NCBI GenBank assembly: GCA_002737705.1 | Contig: NSIM01000005.1 | Coordinates: 10,623-74,622 of the forward strand | Origin: Flavobacteriales bacterium | GTDB taxonomy: Bacteria; Bacteroidota; Bacteroidia; NS11-12g; UBA955 | DNA: 64,000 nucleotides | Reading direction: 5' to 3' | Shown here: positions 48 through 38,393 of the stretch, one piece after another | Numbering within the stretch: position 1 is the stretch's first letter | How the letters are laid out: the number at the start of each line of letters is the position of its first letter | The notes under the pieces: generated by a model | What the model was told of the DNA's origin: nothing | The model's database searches: none | The model's input: only the letters and a program-made list of their open reading frames with translations | Program-made: the position numbers and the translations under genes

Positions 48-782
48 TTACAAAGGTTTGAGGCAAATGTTATCGATCAAAATCTCGCCGTCGGCTTCCA
101 ATTGTAACAGAAATTGTTTAATCATGGAAGGGTCGGTTTTGAAGGATTCAAAGGGGAACATCGACATTGGAATGGATACTTCTGTCCAACTGCTATTGGA
201 AATGGGTGTAGCAATCAATTTTGATGAAAATCCCAACCAGCACTGAGCGCCAGTATAATCTTCAAAGGCGATGGCAAAGGGAAGGGAACGAAGTGTATCG
301 CCCGTACTCTTGAACTGAAAGGATAACCTTGCTGCATCGCGAAGTCCGCTAATGTCTTTGGGTTGCCAGTTGTCCCAGCCGATTCCCATGCCAATCCAAG
401 TGCATCCGCCACCGATTTTATCCCAAGTTAAACGGATATAATTGTTTCCTTTTTGGGCATCGCCGGATTCCTTTTTGATTTGAACGCATTTGGGTTCTTT
501 GGAAATCCATACTTGCTGACCCAAATCTTCGTCCATCAGTTGGAGCGCGTAAAATCCATTGATATTTGGACTTTCTGGGGCAGAGGACATATCGTATAGC
601 CCTTGCTTTTTGGCATATAGCCACTTTCCTTTTAGTAAAACCGTATCCATTTTTTGGATGTCGTTGCTATCCGTTTGCGCGAAACTACTGTTTGGAAACA
701 TCGCAAGGAAACCCCACATAATGATGAATGAAATCCGCGGATTTGTGGTGCAATGGGGAAAGGAAATTCTACAACGCATCAT
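48..782 (-). CDS. secreted carbohydrate-binding-like protein; terminal gene of the GH operon
   Basis: 244-aa ORF with a hydrophobic N-terminus ending SSFAQ. It is Trp/Gly-rich and beta-rich. It sits 3 nt after the stop of the upstream lipoprotein gene. The function is guessed from operon context. The real start may be the internal Met at 719. Confidence 0.4.
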   Translation of the reverse strand: MMRCRISFPHCTTNPRISFIIMWGFLAMFPNSSFAQTDSNDIQKMDTVLLKGKWLYAKKQGLYDMSSAPESPNINGFYALQLMDEDLGQQVWISKEPKCVQIKKESGDAQKGNNYIRLTWDKIGGGCTWIGMGIGWDNWQPKDISGLRDAARLSFQFKSTGDTLRSLPFAIAFEDYTGAQCWLGFSSKLIATPISNSSWTEVSIPMSMFPFESFKTDPSMIKQFLLQLEADGEILIDNICLKPL

Positions 783-784
783 CG

Positions 785-1789
785 TTATAACTCTAACGGA
801 CCTTTTTCAGTGAACATGATACAATCGATTTTTGTACTCGCCGCACCGTTCGATGGATTCGCTAAGTGCAACATGCTAACCATGACCAAAGAATTGGGAT
901 TATGTCGGCTATTGCCATTGTTGCTGGCAGGAACGCCATTCACGAGGTGAATCATATCGCTGTATTTAAACGAAACCAATTTCCAACCTTCCCATGTAAT
1001 ACGAAGCTCACTGTCGTATTGGTCGTCGTTGGCCGGATCAAACTTCCCATTGGCATTGTCGTCTTCGCGGAACTGAAATAACACTCTACTTTCATTGGTA
1101 TTGGGTTTCCCGTAAATCAGGCAATTGAAGTAAACGTCTTCGCCCACACTACTTAATGGATAGGTGGTTTTTCCATAGGCCGATGCTGGGAAATCAATCA
1201 TACCGATAAGCCAATCCCAGTTCACCGTTCCGGCCATATTCAGATAATTGCTACCTTCTACATTGAATTGATCGTTGTGAATTTTGAAATCCATGCCACC
1301 TCCGGTTTGAATAAACGTGGTCCATTTGGTGTTCATGCCTGACTCAAAGTTGGCAACCACAAAACCCGAAGGGTTGCGGAGTCCAGTTATCCCGATTGTG
1401 ACATTAAAAGTATCGGTTACACCTTTTACCAGCAAAGTCGCCACGCAGGGTTCGTTTTTGAACATTGGAAAAAGAGTGGTGCTGCCATTCCATGTCGCCG
1501 TTGACGCATCGATGATTCTACTTTTCCCGGTGATAAATTTTTGTGCACCAGAATTACTGCCTTTGATTCGGATGGTCCAATCGCAGAGTTTGGTGAACTT
1601 GGCGGTGAATCCTACAGTCTCCGATTTGGAAAAGTCTACTGAAGATTTGTTGGCTTGGAAGGGTTGTAACATGCCGAATTGACCGTTGAGATCGCTGAGG
1701 CTAGGCCCGTCGAAGGAACTGTTGTCTCGCTTACAGCTTGATGCGAGCAAGGTGGCGGCAATCACGAGGGTAAGAATTTGTTTTTTCAT
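785..1789 (-). CDS. surface lipoprotein; SusE/F-like glycan-binding candidate
   Basis: The signal peptide MKKQILTLVIAATLLASSC has a lipobox Cys. It lies 10 nt downstream of the beta-barrel gene stop, in the same operon. Confidence 0.45.
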   Translation of the reverse strand: MKKQILTLVIAATLLASSCKRDNSSFDGPSLSDLNGQFGMLQPFQANKSSVDFSKSETVGFTAKFTKLCDWTIRIKGSNSGAQKFITGKSRIIDASTATWNGSTTLFPMFKNEPCVATLLVKGVTDTFNVTIGITGLRNPSGFVVANFESGMNTKWTTFIQTGGGMDFKIHNDQFNVEGSNYLNMAGTVNWDWLIGMIDFPASAYGKTTYPLSSVGEDVYFNCLIYGKPNTNESRVLFQFREDDNANGKFDPANDDQYDSELRITWEGWKLVSFKYSDMIHLVNGVPASNNGNSRHNPNSLVMVSMLHLANPSNGAASTKIDCIMFTEKGPLEL

Positions 1790-1798
1790 CGCTAGGGA

Positions 1799-3529
1799 TT
1801 AAAAGGTCATGTTATAAACAACCATCCACTGGTTGATTTTGTAGTTGTTGAAGGCGTGAATTTTGTCTTGATAATTCGATTGTTGGTAAAGCGCAGCCAA
1901 GTAGGCTTTTTCACCAAATCGGAAGCGAATGCCCGCGGCAGAAACCGTTTGATTCAAATTGCCATTGTATTTGCTGAAATCGATGACTTCGGTAAAGCCG
2001 TTGCGATCCGATAACAAATCATTTCCCTTGCCCTGAAGCGCGGTGTAGCCAATCATCAAGTCCATGCTAGGCAGTAGTTCAAATTCGGCACCCATTCCGG
2101 TTTGGAAAGAGGTGAGGTCAACAGATTCGAAGGCGAATTGACCTGCTCTTTGTGTGTTTTGGTAGCAGGCGGAAGCCGATAATTTGGCAACGCGATCCCA
2201 ATGAAAGTATTTTCCAAGGTTGGCGCCCAGTTGAAGGCGGGTCATCATAAACGATTTCAGCGCTGAGGTGCCTTGTCCGCGAATTTCTTTGAGTTGATGG
2301 TGGCTAAATTCTGACTGAATCACCTCATTCTTACTGTTGTATTTTCCTTTAAGGTATAAACCCTGTCGGTTAAAAGTAGCCTGTCCGTATGGCAATACAT
2401 TGTTAATCAACGGATTGTAGGCCATGAGTTTTGGGTTGATGCCGGTGCGGTACAATAGGCTATTGCCCGTGATATCGCCAAAATTCAGCGGTCGATCTGC
2501 TTGGGTTTGCTTATATCGGTTAAAGAAATTGGATTGGGCATTGTAGTCGACGCGTTTGCTTTGCGCTCCTGGGCTGCGGAAATCAGGACCCACATTCAAA
2601 TATCCCAATTCAGCTTCCCATTGTTTGTTTTCTGGCGAAAGGGTAATGGTGGGATTCATGAAGTAATCGGTGAGTGTAGGCGCGGTTGTATCGATGGTAT
2701 AATGGTAACGTGAATTTCCAAATTCGCCTTGAAGTTGGGCATTGAGTTTCCCGATTTTGTTGTTGTATCGGAAGGTTATGGTATTGACGATATTACTAAA
2801 AACGTTGGTATCCAAAGCAGTTCCTTTCACATCAAACAGGGCAGCCAGATTATAGGCCAAACTCAAATGATTGCTTTGGATTAAATCAACGGTGGTTCCG
2901 CCAAACAATCGGTCTTGGACGTTGCCGAAATTGGTGGCGTTCATTCGTGTGAGGTAGGCGTTGACATTGAGTTCTTTGACAAATTTGATGAACTGTAAAC
3001 CCCAATCCAACGACAAGCCCTGTTGTCGCCAAGTATTTGATTTGTAGAAGGTTTCATAATTTACGATATCGCGCTGTAGCTGAAAAACACCCGGTTGGCC
3101 GATCAACTGATCCTCGTTGTGGTTATATAGGGTAAAGGGGGTTTGCTTTAGGTTGATATCGCCCAATTGGTATCGAACTACATCGGCGATGATGCCTTTT
3201 ACCCAAAGCTGACGTACGTCGAAAGACACTCCGGCACCATAAAATCCACCGTATTTGTTGTTGATGCGAATCATCCCTAGAATTTCAGTGTTTTTGTTGG
3301 GGCTGATGTTAAATCCTAAATCAACGAGAGCATAACCCGCCACTACTTTTTTTGCTGTGGTTTTGTCGGGTATGGTATCGTTCACTTGAATATCGGCATT
3401 GGAGATGATCGAACGTGCTCCGCCTGTGAATAGGACTTTAGGACCAGTTTGGCCTTGGGTGATGTTGGCGATCAGGGTTGCGACTAGGGCAGTGGAAAGG
3501 GTATATAATCGGTTCATGGATTGTTGCAT
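1799..3529 (-). CDS. outer-membrane beta-barrel protein; putative porin, possibly of the Bacteroidota-specific ~600-aa family
   Basis: 576 aa with an N-terminal signal peptide and alternating amphipathic beta-strand patterning. The C-terminus is ...YNMTF, and a terminal Phe is typical of outer-membrane barrels. There is no TonB plug and no lipobox. Its start overlaps the upstream gene's stop by 1 nt. Confidence 0.5.
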   Translation of the reverse strand: MQQSMNRLYTLSTALVATLIANITQGQTGPKVLFTGGARSIISNADIQVNDTIPDKTTAKKVVAGYALVDLGFNISPNKNTEILGMIRINNKYGGFYGAGVSFDVRQLWVKGIIADVVRYQLGDINLKQTPFTLYNHNEDQLIGQPGVFQLQRDIVNYETFYKSNTWRQQGLSLDWGLQFIKFVKELNVNAYLTRMNATNFGNVQDRLFGGTTVDLIQSNHLSLAYNLAALFDVKGTALDTNVFSNIVNTITFRYNNKIGKLNAQLQGEFGNSRYHYTIDTTAPTLTDYFMNPTITLSPENKQWEAELGYLNVGPDFRSPGAQSKRVDYNAQSNFFNRYKQTQADRPLNFGDITGNSLLYRTGINPKLMAYNPLINNVLPYGQATFNRQGLYLKGKYNSKNEVIQSEFSHHQLKEIRGQGTSALKSFMMTRLQLGANLGKYFHWDRVAKLSASACYQNTQRAGQFAFESVDLTSFQTGMGAEFELLPSMDLMIGYTALQGKGNDLLSDRNGFTEVIDFSKYNGNLNQTVSAAGIRFRFGEKAYLAALYQQSNYQDKIHAFNNYKINQWMVVYNMTF

Positions 3530-5394
3530 TAGAAGAAAATTTTGATTTCAACGGTGGTTTCCCAGCCTTTGTATTGGTCTTTGCTGAAGCTTCGGTCTTG
3601 GTAATTCATCCATCGCTGACGGATATAAAGGCCTGCGCCTTTACTCATTTCTATGTCAAAGCCGGTGGCCAAGCCCCATCCTTCCTGATTTCGAGGACGT
3701 CGGCTGATGGCATCTACTGTGGTGTTATAATTTGCGATGATTCGCTCCCAACCTACGTAATTGGCAAAGACAACTTTTGGAGAGAGATGGTAATAGGCTT
3801 CTAGCTGATGATAATAGGTTCTCAAATAGGCTTCTTCGGTGAATAAGGTAATTGCGGAACGCTTTTTTTGCACTGACGCGTAAGAGCCTAAGTAGGTGAT
3901 GAATAAATCTCTGTATGCAAGTCTGGTTTTGTATTTCGCATTCACTTCGATGTTGATGAAATACTTCTTATACAACGGAACACCAGTGGAGGTGCCGTCG
4001 GTAAGATTCACTGTTTCAAAGACGCCGCGATACACTTTTGTTAGATTTTGATACGGACCAACATTGGCCGGGAATCCCCATCGCCAAAAGCGAGATAGGG
4101 AGAGGTTGTTGACGGGGTGGGAGTAGGTGAGTTGGGAAGAGATATTTTCGATTTCGTTGGCGTTGGTATATCCGATGCTCGTTTTCAGTTTGCCGATTTC
4201 GAATTCTGTGTTTAATTCAATACCAGTTCTGTTGTTTGTGATTTGGCCTACAGGAACCATCGCACTAGAAAAAGGTACCAAAACGAGTTGGTCTGAGCTA
4301 CTAGAGCTGCTGACGTTGCCTTCGCGAATGGAAGAATTCCAGAATACGGATGAGTTATTCAAAACCCTTGGACTTACGCGGTAGTAACGAATTAAAAGGG
4401 GGATGCCTGTGGTGGTCTTGGGGAAGCTTAGTTTTAGGTCGATGGCTTCGCCCCATCCTTTGGCTAGGGTTGGACTGAAGTATCGTCCAGCACCCACCTC
4501 GCCGGAAATGGTTAATATGCGTTTTTTGATTTGGAATTCGGCAGTATGCATATTGAATCCAACCCCATGGGTAAGGAGGCTGTCTGAGTAGGTTTGGTTG
4601 TTAAACGTATTTAAACTGACATAATCGTTGCCAAATAATTTTTTCAATTTTCCGCCATAGGATTGATTAGGGAGGGGCGCCATTCCGCCGTTGAGCTGGG
4701 TTTTCCCAAACATAATAACCCCGGAAAGATTCTTGGGCATATCGTTGGCTTCAAGAATAATCCCTTGAAAGGCTTGACGTCCCCATCGGGTGTCTTGGTT
4801 TAGCGCGCCGTTGGTATAGAAGGTGTTATAGCGGTCGGCGACATTGCTTGTTTGGGGATCCCAAGGGTTTCTTTCGAAGATGGAATATCGATTGAAGCCG
4901 GGATTGGTATGGAAAGTAAATGGCGTGAGTGCGTACCAATTGATACCTCCCGCAATTACGTTGAGGCTTCCTTTTTGGAAATCATGGGTTCCAGTTAAGC
5001 TGACGCCCAAGTTTAGCCCTTTTATATTTTCCGCTTGACCAGCGCCGGTCATTGGGGTCCACAAATAAAAATCGGTTGAAAATCTTGTGCTAGGGGTGAT
5101 GCTTCCGCCCATGTTTAGCATGAGTTGTGGGATTTGAGCATCGTCGCCGACGAAAATGTGGGTTGGGGTTTTGGCTTGGTCAATATAGCTACCCCGGTTA
5201 AACATATCTTTCGAATTTTGCAGATATCGCACATTGGCAATAAAACGGTAGTAGCCTGAAATGGTAAATCTTTCCAACTTTTCCGGGGCTTGTTTTGGAT
5301 AAACGCCAAGAGGGTAAATTGTATTTGTGATTTGCGCCACAGCGTTTGTCGTGATAATTCCCCAAAATGCGATTGTAAGTAAATATCTTTTCAT
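3529..5394 (-). CDS. outer-membrane beta-barrel protein; putative porin, paralogous in architecture to the neighbour
   Basis: 621 aa with signal peptide MKRYLLTIAFWGIITTNAVAQ. The C-terminus is ...EIKIFF. No plug domain is present. It starts 5 nt after the GH stop. Confidence 0.5.
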   Translation of the reverse strand: MKRYLLTIAFWGIITTNAVAQITNTIYPLGVYPKQAPEKLERFTISGYYRFIANVRYLQNSKDMFNRGSYIDQAKTPTHIFVGDDAQIPQLMLNMGGSITPSTRFSTDFYLWTPMTGAGQAENIKGLNLGVSLTGTHDFQKGSLNVIAGGINWYALTPFTFHTNPGFNRYSIFERNPWDPQTSNVADRYNTFYTNGALNQDTRWGRQAFQGIILEANDMPKNLSGVIMFGKTQLNGGMAPLPNQSYGGKLKKLFGNDYVSLNTFNNQTYSDSLLTHGVGFNMHTAEFQIKKRILTISGEVGAGRYFSPTLAKGWGEAIDLKLSFPKTTTGIPLLIRYYRVSPRVLNNSSVFWNSSIREGNVSSSSSSDQLVLVPFSSAMVPVGQITNNRTGIELNTEFEIGKLKTSIGYTNANEIENISSQLTYSHPVNNLSLSRFWRWGFPANVGPYQNLTKVYRGVFETVNLTDGTSTGVPLYKKYFINIEVNAKYKTRLAYRDLFITYLGSYASVQKKRSAITLFTEEAYLRTYYHQLEAYYHLSPKVVFANYVGWERIIANYNTTVDAISRRPRNQEGWGLATGFDIEMSKGAGLYIRQRWMNYQDRSFSKDQYKGWETTVEIKIFF

Positions 5395-5398
5395 GGGC

Positions 5399-6748
5399 TT
5401 ATGGATTAAAACTGTCCATGGTGAATTTTTTTACGCGGACCGATTTGGGTTGGGTAGAGTTTGCGCTTGCATCGACATAAAAAGGGTAGTTGGCGTAAGC
5501 GATTTTGTTTTGATATTCGATATTTACAAACAGTCGGTAAGCCCCTTCTTCATTGGGCGCTTTGAACTGTATGCGTTTTGATTTGCCTTTTTTGATCAGA
5601 CCCGGAATTTCGGTGGCCTCGTTTTCTGCATCACCCCCGGCTTTTTTGTCGTTGCTTTCGGCCAAAATTTTCCAACTACAATGCACATTATGAGTGTCGT
5701 TGGGGGTTTGATTGTATTGAATCAAATAGGCATCGGCGAAGGCTTGGTTGATCGAATTCGCGGGCACATGAAGTCCGCTATAAGCGTTTTTCCCGTTGAC
5801 GAGCAGATTCGTAATGCTGGGAGTTGATGTCGTTGGGCTCTGACTGCTCCAAGCAATTTGCAGCGCATCAATGGCTTGCGTGGGCTTGCCATCTTTGGTG
5901 AAAAGGCCATACCAGGTAAGTGTATATTCCTGTTTTTGTCCCCATAAAAACACATACGACCCTATGCAATCTTGGGGATTTGCTGCTATATAGTTTGTGT
6001 ATCTTTTATTGTAGACTTCTGCTTTTTCGAGGCTACTTTGTTCAATGGCAGCGCCCCATGGCGTAGTGGGTGATTCCCAGTGACCATTGGGTCCCCATTC
6101 GGTGATCATGTATGGTCCTGTCCACCCCCATTTCCTGATATTGTAGGGTACGTTGCCGATATCGCCGTAAGTGTTCACGCAGTATACATCGATGTCTGGG
6201 GCTTTTTGTTTGATGAGCGCCACTTCCATCGAGTCCAAGCCGGCAGTTACCGTAGAGGTTGGGTGGTTGGGGTCTACTTGATGCGCATATTTTGCGATGT
6301 CTTGAATTGCATCCCAAACGCGGGTATTGGAATAAAACAGATCGACTTCATTTCCGATGCCCCACATGAGCAAAGCGGGGTGATTTTTGAATCGATCGAT
6401 AACGCTTTTGAAATGATTGAGTTGCTTTTCTACTTTGGCTTTGTTGCTATAATCAAATCCATGTCGTTCGTGCTGAAGCCACATTCCCAGCATCACAGTG
6501 AGTCCGTGTTTTTGCGCATTGTCGAGGATGGTTTGGGCATCGTCGATTCCCCATGTTCTGATGGAATTTCCTCCAATATTCACGACGACGTCTAGGTGGG
6601 TATCGCCACCGGCGCCTTTGACGTAGTAGATTTTCCCATCGCGCAGCATTTCCCAACCTGTAGGGGTTTGGCGCACCTCGACTTTTACAGCTTGGGCGCT
6701 AGATAGATTGAAAAAAATTAGGGAAAGGAGGGTAAGAAAGTACTTCAA
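5399..6748 (-). CDS. secreted clan GH-A (TIM-barrel) glycoside hydrolase; family undetermined (GH2-TIM, GH5 or GH53-like)
   Basis: Signal peptide present. Motifs: GGNSIRTWG (beta-1 Arg), LMWGIGNEVD (acid/base Glu in an NE motif), and MITEWGP (nucleophile Glu about 80 residues later). A C-terminal ~100-aa extra domain follows. Confidence 0.7.
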   Translation of the reverse strand: MKYFLTLLSLIFFNLSSAQAVKVEVRQTPTGWEMLRDGKIYYVKGAGGDTHLDVVVNIGGNSIRTWGIDDAQTILDNAQKHGLTVMLGMWLQHERHGFDYSNKAKVEKQLNHFKSVIDRFKNHPALLMWGIGNEVDLFYSNTRVWDAIQDIAKYAHQVDPNHPTSTVTAGLDSMEVALIKQKAPDIDVYCVNTYGDIGNVPYNIRKWGWTGPYMITEWGPNGHWESPTTPWGAAIEQSSLEKAEVYNKRYTNYIAANPQDCIGSYVFLWGQKQEYTLTWYGLFTKDGKPTQAIDALQIAWSSQSPTTSTPSITNLLVNGKNAYSGLHVPANSINQAFADAYLIQYNQTPNDTHNVHCSWKILAESNDKKAGGDAENEATEIPGLIKKGKSKRIQFKAPNEEGAYRLFVNIEYQNKIAYANYPFYVDASANSTQPKSVRVKKFTMDSFNP

Positions 6749-6758
6749 GTGTTAAAAA

Positions 6759-7451
6759 TTAAAGGTCAAATGCGAAGTAGCTGCTGGAAAGTTTGCTATA
6801 CTTTTTCGCGTTGTACTTGAACAATTTTGCGGGTCTGTGGGTGACACTGGATTGTTTTAGTCCGGTGTCTGTAATGAAATCCATGGAAAGGATTTTTTTT
6901 CTAAAGTTTCTGACGTCGAATACAGTTTCTAGTATCGATTCGTAGAGCTTTTGTAATTCGGTGAGCGTAAAGTATTTTGGCAGCAGCTCGAAGCCAATGG
7001 GCTGACGACGGATTTTGGCTTTCAGCTGGTCTTTGGCAAAAAGGAGAATTTCATTGTGGTCGAATGGCAAGTCTGGAATTTCGGAGATGGGAAACCAGGC
7101 GGCTTCTTCAGCCCATGAGGATGGGTGAATGTTATAATCTTCAATTTTAATCAAAGCAAAATAGGCAACGGTAAAAACGCGGCCAAATGGATGTCGATCT
7201 ACCTTCCCAAACGTATGAATTTGCTCCATGTAAATTTTATCCAATCCGGTGAGATCTTGCAGTACTTTTTCGGCAGACGAGGACAAGTCGTTGTCTAAAC
7301 TGATTAAATCACCAGGAAGTGCCCAACAGTTCCTGTAGGGGTCGGCACCGCGATAAATGAGCAATACTTTAAGTCCCGATTGGTCGAACCCAAAGACTAC
7401 GTTATCTACGGAGACAGCCGCTTTAAAAAAGGGAATAAGTTTTGGATCCAT
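6759..7451 (-). CDS. NrtR/AraR-family transcriptional regulator (Nudix-like domain plus C-terminal winged HTH)
   Basis: 230 aa. It shares a Nudix-like fold pattern and the C-terminal motifs (DHNEIL, LQKLYESILE, DVRNFRKK) with the paralog at 20199..20969. It lies 10 nt upstream of the GH gene on the same strand. Confidence 0.65.
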   Translation of the reverse strand: MDPKLIPFFKAAVSVDNVVFGFDQSGLKVLLIYRGADPYRNCWALPGDLISLDNDLSSSAEKVLQDLTGLDKIYMEQIHTFGKVDRHPFGRVFTVAYFALIKIEDYNIHPSSWAEEAAWFPISEIPDLPFDHNEILLFAKDQLKAKIRRQPIGFELLPKYFTLTELQKLYESILETVFDVRNFRKKILSMDFITDTGLKQSSVTHRPAKLFKYNAKKYSKLSSSYFAFDL

Positions 7452-7544
7452 GGGATATTTCGCAATGTCCTAGGCGAATATATTGTAAAATATACAATAA
7501 TACAAATGCGAACTCTGAATGGAGGATTTTTTACTTATTTATGG

Positions 7545-7578
7545 GCCAAAGTTCAACCAATTTCGGTTGAACTTTGGC
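7545..7578. promoter_or_regulatory. perfect 14-bp inverted repeat with a 6-nt spacer; operator or RNA hairpin candidate
   Basis: GCCAAAGTTCAACC aatttc GGTTGAACTTTGGC. It is about 95 nt 5' of the NrtR-like start on the minus strand. No U-tract follows on either strand, so it is not a classical intrinsic terminator. Confidence 0.4.
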
Positions 7579-7782
7579 GGAGATGTGAATACAGCTGAGC
7601 ATCGTAGACTAAATTAGTAAAAAACTAAGTTAGTACTATTGATATGGAAAAAACAAAAGAAATCATTGATTATTTAAAATTTTCAAACAAATTAAGGGTT
7701 TTGCGCTGTTTGTTTATTCGCAGCTTGCTCAAATTCAGGACAAACGGAGCAAATAGCATCAACCGACGACAGTGTCGCCTGG

Positions 7783-7845
7783 GAAGAAACAACTGAAACA
7801 GTTGATGATCCAGAAGAAACAACCATTGAAACAGTTGATGATCCA
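7783..7845 (+). repeat. imperfect tandem duplication (30 + 33 bp) encoding acidic EETTETVDDP / EETTIETVDDP units
   Basis: gaagaaacaac-tgaaacagttgatgatcca is repeated with a 3-bp insertion. It lies in a start-less reading frame that begins with a lipobox-like LFAACSNSG. Confidence 0.5.
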
Positions 7846-8137
7846 GGTTCGGACATTTCAACCGCTACTGCAAATGGGGGTATTGTAGTCTAAATCTGAT
7901 GTTTTTTCAATAATTGGCTGACTTTCCTTTGAAAGCAAGACTAGCACTATGTAAGTTCAAAAAAAACTGAGTAATCAGTTTTAATAAAAAACTGGCGGCA
8001 TAGATACAAATTCAATGATGCAATGTTTACTTTGTTCAAACCTGAAGTTGAAGCAAAAGTGACCTTGGCGTTCCGAAATGATAAAGGCATAATGCATATT
8101 CCTGAAGATACAATGAGTTAATCAATATGCCGACTAT

Positions 8138-8452
8138 TTGATTATTTTTGAAGATAACAATGCAATGATACTGACTGCAAGAATCACCAAACCTCCGCAA
8201 AATGATTCAAGAATTCATGGTGGAGATTCAGACTCGTTTTTAGCATGTTCTATTATTTTCAAGTACAACAAGTATCCTGTGGAAGGCCGAAAATTTGGCA
8301 CTCAAGGAATTTATTGGGAAATTGATGGTTTAGGATTCGTCATTACATCAAACGAAAGTGAAACAGTTTTTTCTAATTCAGAATTGAATACATATACTAT
8401 TTCCAATAATTTCGCCATGTGGCATGCCGCAGGTATTGCACTATTTAACTAA
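8138..8452 (+). CDS. hypothetical protein
   Basis: 104-aa ORF in an otherwise gene-poor interval next to a transposase remnant. No recognisable motifs. Confidence 0.3.
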   Translation: MIIFEDNNAMILTARITKPPQNDSRIHGGDSDSFLACSIIFKYNKYPVEGRKFGTQGIYWEIDGLGFVITSNESETVFSNSELNTYTISNNFAMWHAAGIALFN

Positions 8453-8510
8453 GAACTTACTAATGGCAAAGAAAAATAAAGAAGACACCATTAAGCCTAT
8501 TGAATTGATA

Positions 8511-8699
8511 TTATGGGATGCAGCCAATAAAGTATGAGGCAGCGTCGAACCAGCGCATCAACCCTTTCTCTCCAAGCTGGTCAAACTCATTTTTCCATTT
8601 ATAAAACGCACTCTTTTTTACCCCAAAAAATTCACACGCCACATTGTTTTTACCACGCTCTTTGGCATAGTGTAATACCCTTAAGTAGTTTGTAGGCAT
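8511..8699 (-). mobile_element. truncated transposase N-terminus (HTH / leucine-zipper region, IS481 or IS3-like); pseudogene remnant
   Basis: 62 aa, ...RVLHYAKERGKNNVACEFFGVKKSAFYKWKNEFDQLGEKGL..., resembles the N-terminal HTH of IS transposases. It stops after 62 codons. There is no catalytic domain and no terminal inverted repeats. Confidence 0.5.
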
Positions 8700-8877
8700 C
8701 CCCAGAATTTCGGATTTGCGGTAGTTCGGTTTCTTTGTGCGGGTAACTGATGGATAGTTCCCGTAATTCGAGTAATTGCTTGTCTTTCATCCAAGAGAAA
8801 AGAGAAAAATCCCACAGCATAAGCCATGGGATAATTCTACACTTTTTTTATAAGACGATTTTTTACATGTTTAGCAA

Positions 8878-20198: not shown

Positions 20199-20969
20199 TC
20201 AATTAAACACAGTAATAGAACCCTCCATTTTAAGATTTACTATGCTAGAATATAATTCCTCGGAGCTGCTTCCATTAAAAACATAAAACCGAGCCGGCTT
20301 ATTGCTCACTCCGTATTGTTTTTCAGTCAAGGCCCGAACAAGTCCAGAATGTAACATTTTCCTTCTAAAATTGCGTTTATCAACTTCTCGTTCTAAAATT
20401 ATTTCGTATAGTGACTGCAAATCCCCCATTGTAAATTTAAGGGGTAGTAATTTGAAAGCAATCGGGTAAATCTGAATCATTTCTCGTAATGCCAACAATG
20501 CTGCCTCAAAAATCTCGTTGTGATCAAAGACCAAATCCTTAATTTCGGAAATTGGAACCCACTTTGCCTCTTTGGTAAATGAGCCAGGCTTAATCTCAAC
20601 TTTACTTGTATCAATCAACGCCAAATAGGCTAACGTTATTACCCGTGCATCGGGTTCTTGACGAACACCTTCTAACCAACTGCGATCTTTGGCTTTTGCA
20701 ATCCGCAAAGGGTCTCCAAAGGCTTTAAATTGATGCAGAAAAATCCCAGACAATCCTGTGAGTTCTCTGAGTATTCGGTCGGCAGCCTCATCTAGATTTT
20801 CATTGTCCCGAACTAAATCTCCCGGAAGGCCAAAACGATTATCAGCGTTTTGGAAGGTACTTTTTGCACCGTTTCTATTGATTAACAACAAACACAAAGC
20901 ATTGTCATTTAATCCAAAAATTGAACAATCTACAGAAACATGGGGATTTAAAGATGGGCTCAAAGACAT
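20199..20969 (-). CDS. NrtR/AraR-family Nudix-like transcriptional regulator, paralog 2
   Basis: 256 aa. It shares LPGDL, ELTGL, FDHNEI, LQSLYEIILE and DKRNFRRK with 6759..7451. It is divergent from the kinase and acyltransferase operon. Confidence 0.65.
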   Translation of the reverse strand: MSLSPSLNPHVSVDCSIFGLNDNALCLLLINRNGAKSTFQNADNRFGLPGDLVRDNENLDEAADRILRELTGLSGIFLHQFKAFGDPLRIAKAKDRSWLEGVRQEPDARVITLAYLALIDTSKVEIKPGSFTKEAKWVPISEIKDLVFDHNEIFEAALLALREMIQIYPIAFKLLPLKFTMGDLQSLYEIILEREVDKRNFRRKMLHSGLVRALTEKQYGVSNKPARFYVFNGSSSEELYSSIVNLKMEGSITVFN

Positions 20970-21090: not shown

Positions 21091-21948
21091 ATGATTCTCA
21101 TTGCTGATAGTGGAAGCACAAAATGTGATTGGATTTTTACCGATGGCGGTTCAACGCGTCTATCATTTCACACAATGGGATTCAATCCATTTTTTCATAC
21201 CAGTGAGCTAATCGAAACTGAAATTAAAAAAAATACTTCACTCTTTGCGATCGCTCACCAGGTTGAACAAGTCTTTTTTTATGGGGCAGGTGCCAGCGAT
21301 TTAAAACGCAACGCGGTTGTTGGCAAGGCCCTAAATTCTGTTTTTAGCAAGGCCAAAGTAGTCGTAGACCACGATTTAAATGGTGCCGTTTATGCAACAT
21401 GTGGTGACAATCCAGGTATTTCTTGTATTTTGGGCACAGGCTCTAACAGCTGTTATTTTGATGGAACCACTATATTCGAGGAAGTGCCCGCCCTGGGATA
21501 TTTACTGGGAGATGAGGCAAGTGGAACATATTATGGCAAAGACCTACTTCGCATGTTTCTGTATCACGAACTACCCGAAAAAATCAACAATGGTCTTAAA
21601 GAGAGATACAACCTGACCAAAGAAAGCATATTTGATTCCATTTATAACAAACCGAATCCAAATGTGTATTTGGCTTCGTTCATGCCTTTTCTCAGTGATA
21701 ACCGCGACGAGAAATGGGTGCGAGATTTTATTTACAACGGCTTCAGCAAATTTATAAATATTCATATCTGGAAATACGAAAACCACAAAGAAGTGCCGGT
21801 ACATTTTGTAGGGTCTGTAGCCTTTTATTTTCGTGATCTGTTAAAAGAGGCTTGTAAAATTCACCGCATTCAGGTAGGAATTATTACGAGCGACCCCATC
21901 TTGAATTTAGTAGATTACCACCTAAAAAAATTAGAACTTTTGGCTTAA
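21091..21948 (+). CDS. BadF/BadG/BcrA/BcrD-type ATPase; N-acetylglucosamine-kinase-like sugar kinase
   Basis: The N-terminus LIADSGSTKCDW is typical of this family. Actin-like ATPase fold motifs are present. Confidence 0.6.
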   Translation: MILIADSGSTKCDWIFTDGGSTRLSFHTMGFNPFFHTSELIETEIKKNTSLFAIAHQVEQVFFYGAGASDLKRNAVVGKALNSVFSKAKVVVDHDLNGAVYATCGDNPGISCILGTGSNSCYFDGTTIFEEVPALGYLLGDEASGTYYGKDLLRMFLYHELPEKINNGLKERYNLTKESIFDSIYNKPNPNVYLASFMPFLSDNRDEKWVRDFIYNGFSKFINIHIWKYENHKEVPVHFVGSVAFYFRDLLKEACKIHRIQVGIITSDPILNLVDYHLKKLELLA

Positions 21949-32325: not shown

Positions 32326-33192
32326 AAAAGCAATCGCAAAAGTTACAAAGAACGAATAGGCCGCATACACCAAAATAGGTTTTTCCATAACAGGGTTTCC
32401 CAATTTATCCCCCGCAATAAGCAATGCCAATGCGGTATTGTGTAAGCCAACTTCGATTGCAATGGTAACCCGATTTCGGTAGCTCAATTTCAAAGGAACA
32501 CCTACCAAAAATCCAATGAGCATACTGCCAATATTTAACGTGATGACATAGGGTGTGAGCAGTTGAACATCCGCAATATCCATTGCTGTACCACCCTGAG
32601 ACGGACTGGCAAAGAATTTATAGGCAAATACCAACAACAGTATACAAGGCAAAATAATATTGAGCCACTTGCCCAAAAATAGCGTCCGATCTCCGGTGCG
32701 TGAACGAACAAGCATTCCAAAAGCCGCGGGAATAATCGTTACAATAAAAATATCAAACAGGGTATTCCAAAAAGGCAATTGAATGAACTCGTTGGCCAGT
32801 GCAGACTCTTTCATGAAATAATGGAGAAAAAAATTTACCATGATTGGAATAGAAATTAGGGATAGCATCGCATTACAAACCGTTAAAGAAACTGCCAAAG
32901 CAACGTTTCCCTTGATTAAGTAACTGATTAAATTGGAGGTGATTCCCCCCGGACACACACTCAAAATTAAAATTCCCACTTTTAATTCATTGGCAATGGG
33001 GGCATAAATAGCAATGGCTGCGGCAACTAAAGGCAAAATGACCATTTGGGCAAACAGGCCAATTGCAAGAGATTTGGGCTGAATAAAAAGTTGCTGAAAA
33101 TCTTCTTTTTTAAGAGACACGCCTAAGCCAAACATAATCATGGCTAAAACCGCATTGAGAACAATGTTAATATCGATTGAAAATGATCCCAT
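32272..33192 (-). CDS. bile acid:sodium symporter (BASS) family transporter
   Basis: A multi-TM protein with a CPGGITSN motif. Its 3' end overlaps the nadD 3' end by 54 nt (convergent). Confidence 0.6.
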   Translation of the reverse strand: MGSFSIDINIVLNAVLAMIMFGLGVSLKKEDFQQLFIQPKSLAIGLFAQMVILPLVAAAIAIYAPIANELKVGILILSVCPGGITSNLISYLIKGNVALAVSLTVCNAMLSLISIPIMVNFFLHYFMKESALANEFIQLPFWNTLFDIFIVTIIPAAFGMLVRSRTGDRTLFLGKWLNIILPCILLLVFAYKFFASPSQGGTAMDIADVQLLTPYVITLNIGSMLIGFLVGVPLKLSYRNRVTIAIEVGLHNTALALLIAGDKLGNPVMEKPILVYAAYSFFVTFAIAFLLVTFRNKVLKKSLDVE

Positions 33193-33251
33193 TTATTGAG
33201 GTTGTTTGCAAAGTACATCTCAAATACGAGGCTACCAAATATACCGGGTAC

Positions 33252-34046
33252 TTAAGATAATTTATCCCGAACTATCGCCAAAAAATGGTCGAAAATACTT
33301 GGATTAGATGCTACAATTTGTTTGGCAAACAAAACCCCATTTTCTCCATTGAAATTGGCCACCTTTCCTCCTGCTTCTTGCACAAGTAACACCCCTGCGG
33401 CAATATCCCATGGCGCCAAACCCATTTCAAAAAATCCATCAAACCTTCCAGCAGCTGTATAGGCCAAATCAATGGCTGCAGAACCCATTCTACGCAAACC
33501 ATGGGTACCACGCATTAACGCTTCAAGCAATGCCAAATACGCATCCATTTTTTCGAATTCGCAGTAGGGAAATCCCGTGGCGATAAGCGAATGGTCCATG
33601 GCAATGACTTTATTCAATTCAAGGCGCACCCCATTTAAATATGCACCTTCACCCAAAGAAGCCGTGAATGATTCTTGTAGGGCCGGACAGCAAACAACAC
33701 CCAGTTGAAGCGCTCCATCTCGCCATAAAGCCACACTGATACTAAATATTGGCAATCCATGCAAAAAATTTGTAGTGCCATCCAAGGGATCAATGATCCA
33801 CGTTGGCTGAGACCCTAAAATACGTTCAGGGTTAAATTCTTCACCAATAAAAACAGATTCTGGCAACAACAATCGCAATTGGTCCATTAGCTTTTGTTCG
33901 GATTCCCGATCAACAAAACTCACCAGCTGGTTTAACCCTTTGTCTACTATTTCTGATTGTCCAATTTTTTGCCAATGTTGTAGTTGGAATATCCCCACCT
34001 CACGGCAAATCTTTTCCACTTCTGCAAGCAATATGGCATTGGCCAT
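33252..34046 (-). CDS. inositol monophosphatase family protein (SuhB-like)
   Basis: WIIDPLDGTTNFLHG metal-binding motif. Confidence 0.8.
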   Translation of the reverse strand: MANAILLAEVEKICREVGIFQLQHWQKIGQSEIVDKGLNQLVSFVDRESEQKLMDQLRLLLPESVFIGEEFNPERILGSQPTWIIDPLDGTTNFLHGLPIFSISVALWRDGALQLGVVCCPALQESFTASLGEGAYLNGVRLELNKVIAMDHSLIATGFPYCEFEKMDAYLALLEALMRGTHGLRRMGSAAIDLAYTAAGRFDGFFEMGLAPWDIAAGVLLVQEAGGKVANFNGENGVLFAKQIVASNPSIFDHFLAIVRDKLS

Positions 34047-34048
34047 GA

Positions 34049-34465
34049 TTAACAGAATTCTTCGTAGGCAAATCGAAGATTTTCGGCCAACATATCAGCA
34101 GTTCTTCCCTCAATCATATGACGCTCAACCATGTGAACCACTTCACCCCCTTTAAACAATGCTACAGCGGGAGAAGAGGGTGGGTATGGAGACATATATT
34201 CGCGAATTTTTGCAACGGCATCTAAATCTTGACCTGCAAAAACCGTTACCATTTTACTGGGTTTTTTACTGCCTGTCAATGATTTCAGAACACCTGGACG
34301 GGCAGACCCTGCGGCACATCCACATACAGAATTCACCATTACGAGGGTTGTATCCATATTCCCCTCAATATGAGAAACTACTTCTTCAGCAGTTTTTAAT
34401 TCGGTAAAACCACCTTGGGTTAATTCGGCACGCATCGGGGCTACAAGCATTTCTGGGTAAGGCAT
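34049..34465 (-). CDS. BrxA/BrxB-family bacilliredoxin (thioredoxin-like, CGC active site)
   Basis: 138 aa with NSVCGCAAG. Confidence 0.65.
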   Translation of the reverse strand: MPYPEMLVAPMRAELTQGGFTELKTAEEVVSHIEGNMDTTLVMVNSVCGCAAGSARPGVLKSLTGSKKPSKMVTVFAGQDLDAVAKIREYMSPYPPSSPAVALFKGGEVVHMVERHMIEGRTADMLAENLRFAYEEFC

Positions 34466-34623
34466 AACAGTAAATTATTATATCAACAAAGATACAATCC
34501 CCCAGAATACGATTTTTTTTTATATTTGTATTCGATTGTTTTTCTTTACATCCGTGTCTATCCAGAAGAAACCGAAACTCCCAAAACAATGAAGAATATT
34601 CCATTCATCTAAGCTAAAAACCC

Positions 34624-37600: not shown

Positions 37601-37851
37601 CGGTTACTGCCCTCCAACTTTTCGATTTAAACGCCAAAATTGCCAATAATCTGCTATTGGTATCTTCGTATTGGACATTGGAAAAATTGGAAGTTTTCGA
37701 CCTTAAAGGCAAACGGGTTTATTTTAACACAACCAACCAAGGAGTCCCCATTAATGTGATTCCTTATGGCGTATATATCTATCGATTACATGCCCAAAAT
37801 GCAAAAAATCAAGTGATAAAAACCGGTACATGGGTTAATGTACTAGACTGA
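34624..37851 (+). CDS. large secreted T9SS cargo protein (type A C-terminal sorting domain)
   Basis: 1075 aa with a signal peptide. The C-terminal ~80 aa (...KLEVFDLKGKRVYF...GVYIYRLHAQN...) is CTD-like. Confidence 0.6.
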   Translation: MYITSIKYLIALISFALVSVLSYAANTWGGEMYASHIGNNKYMITYKAYQNCGSGSKLPDTTNIKCYAGTSYSCGTVSIKASKISVRDLTYKCSTGTSCKFGAPISEVIYQCTADLNSKVYTSLLSGSCQEITFFATGWFMPFGSCYSAGGTESVVATTLYIGNLNRCKSKTNIAPALFFDPIRNIRINQKITIAQGLVDTSEYDWLHFQLSPSMYQVPFNNKTCSATPNSNYLNPFTPYCNPAAIQCTPNKNTSPIQGTLFDTMSGDLSFYPTVADEKSIISYRIMEYRRDSTGKWTLIAKHTREIGAITFDANGTNEAPSILWGSGISKTCVGTSVKSKIFDITDFPVPGQSKVDSLLVIVPKNIKGGILKVYSSSINQSAIELNWNPSLTDTAYIPYLFPIKIIDQHCDPPLEMSITHLFTIYPKPDGEPLVSYLGCNKLALQVKNLRGGPDVKCTWQVNDANGKLVATSKSVKDTLFLNGPGKYNVQALFSNRGLCFKSWDTSFNIIDTLTSFHLGGKTLITDTINCPNATYLAEPFDLVGKNATLSYQWYALDQTLAYGYKDPRKIPTNALKKIATSKNLSILPRSDTAFLLSITDNQGCIESRELRIIQIFSKALSWKKKPLEPICASNPPFKLIDPLNKDMSTGDFFTNIRCLNGKYLDSIGPNYYKVKAPAKPNTGEKISLFLVASFDTLGCISRDTNTIDVVYSPLFNLNKEIKICTSDSGFCLSTAVTKPATKAKPFEWSIISKPSKSPAQLLSTTINHCKGIHLITHFDSIALGKYVISACAIDSALGCRSCDTTTIISKSKWTFVYVGDSVLCPNDPPVQLHKFNKVTSGESSDSIYSMTFYDINGESKPNFNPSQLVDTKNGILFPRIATGKLRIAFSPQKYCYADGLVLLRIQDTLAIKSTVTPDSIIRLPKTSFTFTANTISSRVWWDFGSGLNADTSTLNPITWSFENKPASYRVKVRSFNTNTCYGESQIKVFVLPVTALQLFDLNAKIANNLLLVSSYWTLEKLEVFDLKGKRVYFNTTNQGVPINVIPYGVYIYRLHAQNAKNQVIKTGTWVNVLD

Positions 37852-37958
37852 GCCCATCAACTTTTTGAATCCCTATTCAATGGTGTAACTATTATTGTAC
37901 TTTTTAGAATATATATTGTGACTATAATTTCATAAAATGTCCAATGAAAACCCCCTAA

Positions 37959-38393
37959 GTGACTATTTCAAAGCTGCCGTATCACCCCGATTTACTGGTT
38001 GCTTTTGGGGGAAATTCTATACGGATATGGGGAATTGACAATGCCAAAACAATCATAGATGAGGCACAAAAAATAGGGCTGACGGTGATGCTGGGGATGT
38101 GGTTGCAATACGAACGCCACGGTTTTGATTACAACAACAAAGCGAAAGTAGCCAAAAAATTGGCTCATTTTAAAAGTATAATTGATCAATACAAAGACCA
38201 TCCTGCCTTGTTAATGTGGGGAATTGGCAATGAAGTTGATTTGCTTTACAGCAATACCAAAGTATGGGATGCCGTTGAAGAAATTGCCCAATACGCTCAT
38301 AAAGTCGATCCAAACCATCCCACTTCTACTGTAACTGCCGGCTTAGATTCCCTTGAAGTAGCATTGATAAAAGAAAAAGTACCCAAAATATAA
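37959..38393 (+). pseudogene. truncated paralog (central ~130 codons) of the GH-A glycoside hydrolase at 5399..6748
   Basis: About 80% amino-acid identity to residues ~60-190 of the intact GH, including GGNSIRxWGID and LLMWGIGNEVDL. It lacks the N-terminus, the signal peptide and the nucleophile region. A stop follows ...IKEKVPKI. Confidence 0.75.

Follow-up and report, generated by a model that had tools for sequence, protein, structure and literature searches.

A probable β-1,3-glucan utilisation operon without SusC/SusD from a freshwater Bacteroidota, with homologs of Cytophaga hutchinsonii CHU_1276-1278

In Bacteroidota, SusC/SusD pairs are treated as the hallmark of glycan uptake, and PULs are located and counted by them in genomic and metagenomic data. 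The window, the whole stretch of 64,000 nucleotides analysed here, opens with a locus that the initial annotation described as PUL-like, devoid of this pair and the best candidate there for an undescribed glycan acquisition module. Such a locus raises the question of which glycan it serves and how that glycan would cross the outer membrane. We consider it probable that the region represents the leading six genes in an operon of roughly eight for the utilisation of β-1,3-glucan, of the laminarin or chrysolaminarin type, in an uncultured freshwater Bacteroidota.

All six open reading frames proposed for this part of the minus strand are found at their places and are tightly packed. From the first gene to the last, they are:

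6759..7451, minus strand: NrtR/AraR-family transcriptional regulator, 230 aa (from its Pfam domains)
5399..6748, minus strand: GH158 glycoside hydrolase, 449 aa, TTG start (from PDB structure matches)
3529..5394, minus strand: barrel A, CHU_1276-family outer-membrane β-barrel, 621 aa, ending ...ETTVEIKIFF
1799..3529, minus strand: barrel B, CHU_1277-family outer-membrane β-barrel, 576 aa, ending ...YNMTF
785..1789, minus strand: lipoprotein, CHU_1278 family, 334 aa, lipobox LASS/CKRD
48..782, minus strand: gene 6, CBM30/SGBP-B-like glycan-binding protein, 244 aa as called (from an ortholog family scan)

The intergenic gaps measure 10, 4, 9 and 2 nt, and the genes of barrels A and B overlap by 1 nt in a TAATG stop/start, a translational coupling that is conserved across the related loci. 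The gene order, whose loss in relatives would have counted against the proposed unit, is retained. The genes for GH158, barrel A, barrel B, the lipoprotein and the binder are collinear in 65/65 to 77/78 related loci, nearly all from freshwater MAGs; the 84 loci behind these counts are the closest relatives and do not sample the family at random. This collinearity places the six-gene arrangement far beyond chance. The operon is not complete at gene 6, as first described: the window edge lies 47 nt past this gene, and relatives continue with a GH3 gene (49/57) and a gene for a protein of about 290 aa (54/56). GH158, GH3, a CBM30/SGBP-B-like binder and an NrtR-type regulator are all encoded in one direction at gaps of at most 10 nt. 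The description as a PUL-like, co-regulated glycan locus holds, and the co-localised, co-oriented CAZymes, glycan binders and dedicated regulator of a canonical PUL are all present. A gene for an inner-membrane sugar transporter is missing from the locus.

The hydrolase offers the clearest view of the substrate. Its earlier placement in clan GH-A is borne out and can be narrowed to GH158. The protein, a TIM barrel with an Ig-like domain, shows full-length similarity to this family and matches PDB 9oro, GH158(Pro), with E=5e-89 (query 18-425, chain 21-423) and PDB 6pal with E=2.8e-65. It also has the Asn-Glu after strand 4 and the Glu nucleophile after strand 7 that characterise GH158. The catalytic residues, the possible lack of which had been raised as an objection, are invariant in 62/62 orthologs: N133/E134 as acid/base, E217 as nucleophile and E274 in the -1 subsite. 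Their equivalents are Glu143/Glu229/Glu285 of GH158(Pro) (PMC13195107) and N136/E137/E220 of BuGH158 (PMC7157763). The characterised GH158 enzymes are laminarin-preferring β-1,3-glucanases (PMC7157763; PMC13195107), and the window enzyme is predicted from its sequence to be a β-1,3-glucanase as well. The target of the locus would be a β-1,3-glucan of the laminarin type. This reading is supported by the GH3 gene downstream in 49/57 loci, which matches the content of Bacteroides β-1,3-glucan PULs with their GH158/GH16, GH3 and SGBP-B (PMC7157763). Galactan, arabinan and mannan, the substrates suggested earlier, give way to it, since GH158 together with GH3 points to β-1,3-glucan. The enzyme carries a Sec signal peptide (..SSAQA/VK) with neither a lipobox nor a T9SS C-terminal domain, and the lipobox is absent in 57/62 of its orthologs. 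Having a Sec signal only, GH158 is probably periplasmic, and the same location is probable for GH3. The GH158 orthologs, without lipobox or T9SS domain, have a parallel in C. hutchinsonii, where endoglucanases including Cel9C are periplasmic.

The regulator combines a non-catalytic Nudix-fold sensor domain with a winged-helix DNA-binding domain. Its assignment to the NrtR type agrees with Pfam, which returns NrtR_WHD at E=4.6e-25 (88 bits, cut-off 27), AraR_C at 4.4e-16 (59 bits, cut-off 23.8) and NUDIX at 1.7e-4 (22 bits, cut-off 21.1). The Nudix box is degenerate, reading GDLISLDNDLSSSAEKVLQDLTG against the consensus GX5EX7REUXEEXGU. The NCBIfam NtrR model NF050029 is matched with E=6.5e-46 and 156.8 bits, below its cut-off of 400 bits, and an identity as ADP-ribose-responsive NrtR equivalog was rejected on this score. 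Since only some of the related loci have the regulator, this control is not a constant property of the locus. Two elements precede its gene:

7481..7499, no strand: candidate operator TATTGTA-N5-TACAATA, a perfect palindrome about 30-48 nt upstream of the regulator start
7550..7573, minus strand: hairpin AGTTCAACC-GAAATT-GGTTGAACT, its stem conserved and its loop variable in L002, L003, L005, L008 and L009

The palindrome is the sole perfect match within the 64 kb. Of the 29 listed loci that have the regulator directly upstream, 19 show it at equal distance, and it persists as regulator identity falls from 97% to 65%, although the flanking DNA has diverged. It runs into a Bacteroidota-type -7 box that resembles TAnnTTTG (TATATTCG here, TATATTTG in relatives); the consensus TAnnTTTG is the Bacteroides promoter type. 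A predicted palindromic operator in the regulator's own promoter region is what the NrtR/AraR family leads one to expect. The repressor probably binds this palindrome overlapping the promoter, and a sugar effector would release it. The hairpin is probably the terminator of a gene located upstream in relatives. It forms the upstream limit of the block common with L002, the homology beginning at 7575.

A trace of the same locus start is found elsewhere in the window:

37893..38390, plus strand: decayed second copy of the locus start, at the site where relatives hold the intact locus

This copy retains an operator-like palindrome at 37893-37911 with 1 mismatch and a GH158 fragment at 37983-38390, which corresponds to residues 51-186 at 77% identity and has a stop at its end. 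Between the two, from 37936, is a stretch that by eye resembles the opening ~17 codons of a regulator-like ORF and has no tblastn match.

The reported lack of a SusC/SusD pair applies to the window locus and to all annotated related loci. Of the canonical PUL, both the SusC-like TonB-dependent transporter, with its plug and 22-strand barrel, and the adjacent SusD-like lipoprotein are missing, and no SusD-family Pfam domain occurs among the genes of L001-L004, L085-L089, L091 and L092 or in the window locus. Plug-domain genes flank L001 and L004, where they belong to other, non-conserved clusters. In place of the pair stand two proteins of about 600 aa, both of which model as large β-barrels, as had been anticipated. 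The model of barrel A suggests roughly 22-24 strands and no plug; in barrel B, the N-terminal ~140 residues show the highest conservation and are poorly modelled. The claim that a TonB plug is lacking stands: neither barrel matches Plug or TonB_dep_Rec in Pfam even at E<=1. Among the 240 listed homologs, these two domains never appear, precomputed Pfam annotation being nearly always empty with a rare DUF2490 or OMP_b-brl. The N-terminal plug domain and TonB box of TonB-dependent transporters are absent from the barrels. Both proteins end in Phe, as was noted, and the top C-terminal triplets of the tallied family members all end in F. Their description as paralog-like, however, is not supported. 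Compared with each other, they give BLASTP E=3e-4 over 103 aa and a profile-profile probability of 5%, and each has its own invariant motifs. Neither matches a well-characterised non-transport family, and some family members have a CBM_4_9 fused to barrel A. Passive, porin-like uptake through the barrels, as originally suggested, may reasonably be supposed.

The fifth gene product is indeed a lipoprotein by its lipobox, LASS/C, and 60/67 of its orthologs have a lipobox too. It is probably a two-domain β-sandwich with an X2/Ig-like and a CBM11-like part; the family gives weak matches to CBM_11 (8/22) and CBM_X2 (6/22). The product of gene 6, whose start is more likely at Met22 (nt 719), had been called CBM-like. 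The window protein alone gives a weak match (CBM30, E=7e-4), and the call gains strength from its orthologs, which match CBM30 in 14/16 cases (best 2.8e-8) and SGBP_B_XBD in 11/16 (best 1.1e-7). Profile matches in the PDB are the CBM30 structures 2c24 and 1wmx with E=0.056. The window protein has a Sec signal, and a lipobox is present in 24/48 orthologs.

The module is less novel than it first appeared. Barrels A and B and the lipoprotein are homologous, respectively, to CHU_1276, CHU_1277 and CHU_1278 from the chu_1276-chu_1280 "atypical PUL" of C. hutchinsonii for cellulose, the genetics of which have been pursued since 2014 (PMC12016534). Barrel A matches CHU_1276 by BLASTP with E=1.4e-62 at 27.5% identity and has the C-terminal ETTVE[IL]KIFF in common with it. 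Its profile matches P0303 with E=1.3e-73, and the 90% cluster of P0303 includes a protein named "CHU_1276 family" by NCBI. For barrel B and CHU_1277, BLASTP gives E=1.3e-63 over the full length and the profile E=9.6e-108; for the lipoprotein and the CHU_1278 ortholog, the values are E=1.3e-16, again over the full length, and E=4.6e-34, and both proteins have a lipobox. One of the compared loci, L085, is the published C. hutchinsonii cluster, as its gene 4 of 375 aa with Y253, F256 and F343 indicates. The three families stand in the order of the atypical PUL, and a CHU_1279 ortholog is absent. Gene 6 has no similarity to CHU_1279 by BLASTP, HMM or hhalign, and on these comparisons appears as an analogue in its slot, not an ortholog. 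The window operon is a new, probable β-1,3-glucan variant of the known, mechanistically unsolved CHU_1276-1278 system.

The predicted outer-membrane part of this system consists of two unrelated, translationally coupled, plug-less large barrels, a β-sandwich lipoprotein and a presumably substrate-specific CBM30/SGBP-B-like binder, which may form a complex. Glucan would be caught on the cell surface by the binder or binders, and the barrel pair would pass its chains or large oligosaccharides across the outer membrane independently of TonB energy. GH158 and the downstream GH3 β-glucosidase would then release laminaribiose and glucose in the periplasm, a hydrolysis that could maintain the inward gradient.

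In C. hutchinsonii, CHU_1276, 1277, 1279 and 1280 are each reported to be required for growth on cellulose. CHU_1276 and CHU_1277 are putative channels, and a role in the organisation or presentation of surface enzymes has also been considered. Barrels A and B with the lipoprotein may be seen as a scaffold in the outer membrane that serves to anchor, organise or stabilise binders and glycosidases at the cell surface, the sugars entering via porins or TonB-dependent transporters encoded elsewhere. This alternative, which we regard as rather unlikely, draws on the NCBI family name "cellulose-binding protein", on the lack of an obvious energy source encoded in the locus and on the observation that having CHU_1279 physically present outweighs its cellulose binding, suggesting a structural role in a complex. 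However, two barrels modelled at about 22 or more strands each would be large for a mere anchor, and none of the annotated loci has an alternative transporter co-localised. Moreover, GH158 lacks a surface-targeting signal in 57/62 orthologs, which leaves no obvious surface enzyme to present, and CHU_1276 has been linked to glucose uptake and CHU_1277 is required for cello-oligosaccharide assimilation.

Still less probable is an arrangement in which one barrel only is the glycan channel and the other assembles or surface-exposes the lipoprotein and binder, or acts as a lid or regulatory subunit. Such a division would suit two barrels without detectable relatedness and with separate invariant motifs, the highly conserved, non-barrel-like N-terminal ~140 residues of barrel B, and the Sec-only gene 6 protein, which as the expected external glycan binder needs an outward route. 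Yet nothing assigns these roles to either barrel, and A and B are strictly co-inherited and translationally coupled. That the locus exports or remodels the cell's own β-glucan, with an export barrel and a periplasmic trimming hydrolase as in cellulose, alginate and PNAG systems, is hardly credible: no glycosyltransferase or synthase is found in or near any annotated locus, a GH3 exo-glucosidase occurs together with CBM/SGBP-like binders and a catabolic-type regulator, cellulose catabolism in Cytophaga depends on the homologous genes, and the cassette also adjoins catabolic sets such as KduI/GH88/PL14.

Import of glucan by the barrel pair is the preferred reading, and the distribution of the triad of barrel A, barrel B and lipoprotein bears on its scope. 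The triad recurs beside GH9, GH16 (at L091), GH5+CBM6/35+GH3, a GH5/PMI/ROK neighbourhood and a PL14/GH88/KduI set, as profiles confirm. Its contexts include uronate-degrading genes, and at L087 a PL1 pectate lyase lies 2.5 kb downstream. The slot-4 gene differs in every sampled context. It is conceivable, if short of probable, that Bacteroidota possess in the triad a second, general machine that imports glycans across the outer membrane independently of TonB and works next to SusC/SusD. Such a cassette would be modular, combining a substrate-specific slot-4 binder with varied CAZyme sets (for β-1,3-glucan, cellulose, other β-glucans and possibly mannan, pectin and uronates), passing intact chains to periplasmic, possibly processive hydrolases that help draw the chain in. 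If so, the version for a soluble substrate would provide an accessible model of the outer-membrane polysaccharide transporter that has long been sought in Cytophaga. A substrate that is soluble, purchasable and fluorescently traceable would make the mechanism directly testable.

The family has 337 occurrences in a species-level genome collection, most of them in abundant uncultured freshwater lineages, and PUL detection based on SusC/SusD is blind to loci of this kind. Laminarin-type glucans are a major algal carbon pool. CHU_1276-1279 have been reported only from three cellulolytic species, and the outer-membrane transporter of that system is still called unidentified. The C. hutchinsonii genes now appear as one instance of a widespread cassette that stands beside at least six different enzyme sets, which connects two separate literatures, on Bacteroidota glycan uptake loci and on C. 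hutchinsonii cellulose genes.

The regulator resembles the NrtR/AraR family in its N-terminal Nudix fold, whose catalytic box is degenerate, in its C-terminal NrtR-type winged helix and in a palindromic candidate operator that overlaps the promoter from which its own operon would be transcribed; its target is a β-glucan locus instead of NAD or arabinose genes. The barrels share the β-barrel fold with substrate-specific diffusion channels, namely the LamB/ScrY maltoporins, the chitoporin ChiP and CymA, and with the barrels of TonB-dependent transporters. Like LamB/ScrY, ChiP and CymA, they are encoded with enzymes for the matching glycan and are proposed to let oligosaccharides pass independently of TonB.

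The Bacteroides 1,3GUL (B. uniformis BACUNI_01484-01490, PMC7157763) has the same combination of GH158 (or GH16), GH3 and an SGBP-B-like binder, and its laminarin specificity is predicted for the window locus as well. GH16 in place of GH158 at the L091 cassette mirrors the interchange of GH16 and GH158 among Bacteroides species. The 1,3GUL, however, includes a SusC-like TonB-dependent transporter and SusD (SGBP-A), neither of which is found here. BuGH158 is predicted at the cell surface, whereas the window enzyme has a Sec signal only, and a hybrid two-component regulator stands in the place of the NrtR/AraR type.

From CHU_1276-1280, the window operon differs in having GH158 upstream and GH3 downstream, as opposed to GH9 downstream for cellulose, and an NrtR/AraR-type regulator where C. 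hutchinsonii has an ECF sigma factor. CHU_1276 exceeds barrel A by 128 residues in length, and gene 6 has one CBM30-like domain, whereas CHU_1279, an SGBP-B-like bimodular cellulose binder, has two CBM-like domains. The predicted substrate is soluble and the hosts are planktonic freshwater bacteria, in contrast to a soil cellulose specialist. Both systems nevertheless have homologous proteins in the same order, the genes of A and B adjacent on the same strand, a CBM-like binder next to them and a Sec-only glycoside hydrolase alongside, and both do so without SusC/SusD.

The locus consists of six open reading frames, all on the minus strand and in full agreement with the initial annotation:

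6759-7451, minus strand, regulator of the NrtR/AraR type
5399-6748, minus strand, GH158 hydrolase with a TTG start codon
3529-5394, minus strand, barrel A
1799-3529, minus strand, barrel B
785-1789, minus strand, lipoprotein
48-782, minus strand, gene 6, encoding a CBM-like protein

Spacers of 10, 4, 9 and 2 nt separate the genes, and the stop codon of barrel A and the start codon of barrel B have one base in common (TAATG). The G+C content is even at about 0.44-0.46 and drops to 0.35 immediately upstream. This upstream region (7600-8870) is nearly devoid of ORFs. A 58-aa ORF within it (8511-8687, minus strand), with sub-threshold matches to HTH_28, HTH_29 and HTH_23 (E ~2e-5), is possibly the N-terminal remnant of a transposase.

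With each species represented by a single genome, a scan located relatives of barrel A at 337 places. Synteny was assessed for the best 80 of these 337, nearly all of them from uncultured lake and river Bacteroidota MAGs, and for four other contigs. This sample is weighted toward close relatives, and each count is limited to loci with enough contig. The GH158 gene lies immediately 5' of barrel A in 77 of 78 related loci, and barrel A is followed by barrel B (73/73), the lipoprotein gene (67/67) and gene 6 (65/65). The 1-nt overlap of the barrel genes recurs in 33 related loci, while in the remainder they are mostly no more than 6 nt apart. The operon had been thought to end at gene 6. In relatives, gene 6 is followed by a GH3 gene (49/57) and then by a gene for a protein of about 290 aa with no assigned role (54/56); the operon therefore extends beyond the window edge. 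The ~290-aa protein, absent from the window and encoded at 15983-16858 in L002, one of the closest relatives, has no Pfam match, and in 29 of 53 orthologs a lipobox comes after an Arg-rich N-terminal segment (..PRRTRKNW..GTSC). Its gene is probably the final one of the operon. In many relatives a convergent gene lies 3' of the operon (L002 16912-18243, minus strand; also in L001, L004 and others). Its product has repeats of CBM48/CBM53 and the sorting domain of T9SS proteins, and is predicted to be a surface binder of alpha-glucan (starch/glycogen), encoded beside a beta-glucan locus. Contigs L011, L020, L024, L029 and L033 have 'uncultured Rhizobium sp.' or 'Bifidobacterium sp.' in the titles of their public MAG records despite their Bacteroidota-type locus; the titles are most likely mislabels of bin taxonomy.

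Pfam recognises only a GH2-like TIM barrel in the hydrolase, which a PDB search assigns to GH158 (9oro, E=5e-89, residues 18-425; 6pal, E=2.8e-65). Glu143 and Glu229 are reported as catalytic in GH158(Pro), the enzyme of 9oro, with Glu285 at the -1 subsite (PMC13195107), and N136/E137/E220 in BuGH158 (PMC7157763). The equivalents in the hydrolase, N133/E134, E217 and E274, are invariant in all 62 extracted orthologs. With these residues and the gene order conserved, nothing was found of what the initial annotation had named as speaking against its reading. Laminaria-type beta-1,3-glucan is the preferred substrate of the two characterised GH158 enzymes (PMC13195107, PMC7157763), and beta-1,3-glucan is the predicted substrate instead of the galactan, arabinan or mannan suggested earlier. 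The hydrolase is probably periplasmic, since 57 of the 62 orthologs lack a lipobox and most, at about 430-475 aa, are too short for a T9SS C-terminal domain.

The regulator matches NrtR_WHD (E=4.6e-25), AraR_C (E=4.4e-16) and NUDIX (E=1.7e-4). It is not NrtR itself, as its score is far under the equivalog cut-off. Its Nudix box is degenerate (EKVLQD in place of REUxEE), which suggests that the Nudix fold acts as a sensor and not as an enzyme. An NrtR-type regulator is found immediately upstream in part of the related loci only, and in 19 of the 29 such loci listed the palindrome TATTGTA-N5-TACAATA lies about 45 nt ahead of the regulator start codon. This candidate operator is kept down to 65% regulator identity amid unrelated flanking DNA, occurs as a single perfect copy within the 64-kb window, and adjoins a TAnnTTTG-type element, which we take to be a -7 box after the Bacteroides promoter consensus. 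A hairpin at 7550-7573 (minus strand), whose 9-bp stem is conserved among close relatives while its loop varies, sits precisely at the edge of the homology to L002 (from 7575), and is likely the terminator of the relatives' upstream gene that travelled with the locus. A second NrtR/AraR-family regulator (20199-20969, minus strand; 39% identity to the first; NrtR_WHD 4.7e-22) is divergent from a gene for a BadF/BadG-type, sugar-kinase-like ATPase (21091-21948, plus strand), and the pair could be another sugar regulon.

In L002, the region upstream of the locus (91-5568) is collinear with window positions 32725-37572. Next to the latter, at 37893-38390 (plus strand), the beginning of the locus is present a second time in decayed form, at the position that the intact locus occupies in the closest relatives. 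This copy contains, in order, an operator-like palindrome, a stretch that on visual inspection resembles the opening codons of a regulator-like ORF, and a GH158 fragment of 136 residues (aa 51-186, 77% identity). The intact locus is located 30 kb away on the opposite strand. It would seem that the native copy decayed. The working copy may have replaced it laterally: the flanks share ~70% nucleotide identity with L002, the intact locus 83%. Two large ORFs are free of Pfam domains at E<=1e-5: one of 1075 aa (34624-37851, plus strand), which relatives also have beside the locus (with 1081 aa in L002), and one of 782 aa (42516-44864, plus strand).

The barrel A profile, searched against 1.8 billion representative proteins, matched 315 clusters. 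One match, P0303 (E=1.3e-73), belongs to the same 90%-identity cluster as NCBI 'CHU_1276 family cellulose-binding protein [Cytophaga sp.]'. L085, a contig carrying a mate from this cluster, encodes proteins of 749, 599, 388 and 375 aa, a GH9 and a protein of 310 aa; the fourth has exactly the published features of CHU_1279 (375 aa, Y253, F256, F343, Gln48, Gln375). By BLASTP, barrel A matches CHU_1276 (E=1.4e-62), barrel B matches CHU_1277 (E=1.3e-63, full length) and the lipoprotein matches CHU_1278 (E=1.3e-16, full length), so that the module is not undescribed, as had been supposed. The earlier view of the two barrels as paralog-like is not supported. Gene 6 gave no match to CHU_1279 by BLASTP or profiles.

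CHU_1276-1280 of Cytophaga hutchinsonii have been termed an 'atypical PUL' (PMC12016534). As cited in the Cytophaga literature, cells need each of CHU_1276, 1277, 1279 and 1280 to grow on cellulose. CHU_1277, an outer-membrane protein bound to cellulose, is implicated in the assimilation of cello-oligosaccharides, a link with glucose uptake is given for CHU_1276, and the cluster is reported from C. hutchinsonii, C. aurantiaca and Sporocytophaga only. CHU_1278 and CHU_1279 are predicted to be SGBP-B-like beta-sandwich proteins. According to a review, the outer-membrane transporter presumed to deliver cellulose chains to periplasmic endoglucanases, including Cel9C, 'has not yet been identified'.

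In the more remote relatives of barrel A that were sampled, the profile-confirmed triad of barrel A, barrel B and lipoprotein stands beside GH9 (L085), immediately downstream of GH16 (L091), with three GH5+CBM6/35 T9SS enzymes and GH3 (L089), 2.5 kb upstream of a T9SS pectate lyase (L087), and with a LacI/PL14/GH88/KduI/dehydrogenase set (L092). In L086, the triad has a CBM_4_9-fused barrel A and is near a GH5 mannosidase/cellulase, mannose-6-P isomerase and ROK kinase. None of these loci has a SusC/SusD pair. The fourth gene is unlike from one context to the next, as expected if this slot encodes a substrate-specific binder. The searchable literature reports the triad neither beside GH158 nor from any species but the three cellulolytic ones.

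Barrels A and B lack a plug; the model of barrel B is poor at the N-terminus. The lipoprotein has the lipobox LASS|C, a lipobox being present in 60 of 67 orthologs, and recurrent weak matches to CBM_11 and CBM_X2. The evidence from gene 6 by itself is weak, but a scan of its family yielded CBM30 in 14 of 16 members and an SGBP-B xyloglucan-binding domain in 11 of 16; the signal is of lipoprotein type in half of the orthologs and a Sec signal in the window's clade. Some distant barrel A members of about 790-800 aa (P0276, P0288, P0292 and L086 10001-12382) carry an N-terminally fused CBM_4_9 (E=3e-16 to 1e-8). In outer-membrane barrels the N-terminus normally faces the periplasm, and the puzzling topology of this fusion could be informative for the mechanism.

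Computation establishes the identities, homologies and order of the genes, the catalytic residues, the absence of plugs and the operator. On the proposed mechanism, the lipoprotein and the gene 6 binder would first capture beta-1,3-glucan. If GH158 is periplasmic, the outer membrane must let chains or large oligosaccharides through, for which the plug-less barrels would be the simplest route, and GH158 and GH3 would complete the breakdown in the periplasm. The main alternative, also entertained in the Cytophaga literature, is that the barrels and the lipoprotein organise surface proteins without conducting sugar. Export of glucan is unlikely, because the locus has no synthase, its partner genes are catabolic, and Cytophaga genetics indicate catabolism.

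The features of SusC and SusD, both tested, are absent from the locus, which is therefore not a canonical PUL, and the initial reading of a SusC/SusD-free glycan module stands. Compared with the CHU_1276-1280 system, the locus agrees in three of four sequence criteria, CHU_1279 orthology being the one that fails, and it differs in its enzymes, predicted substrate, regulator and habitat.
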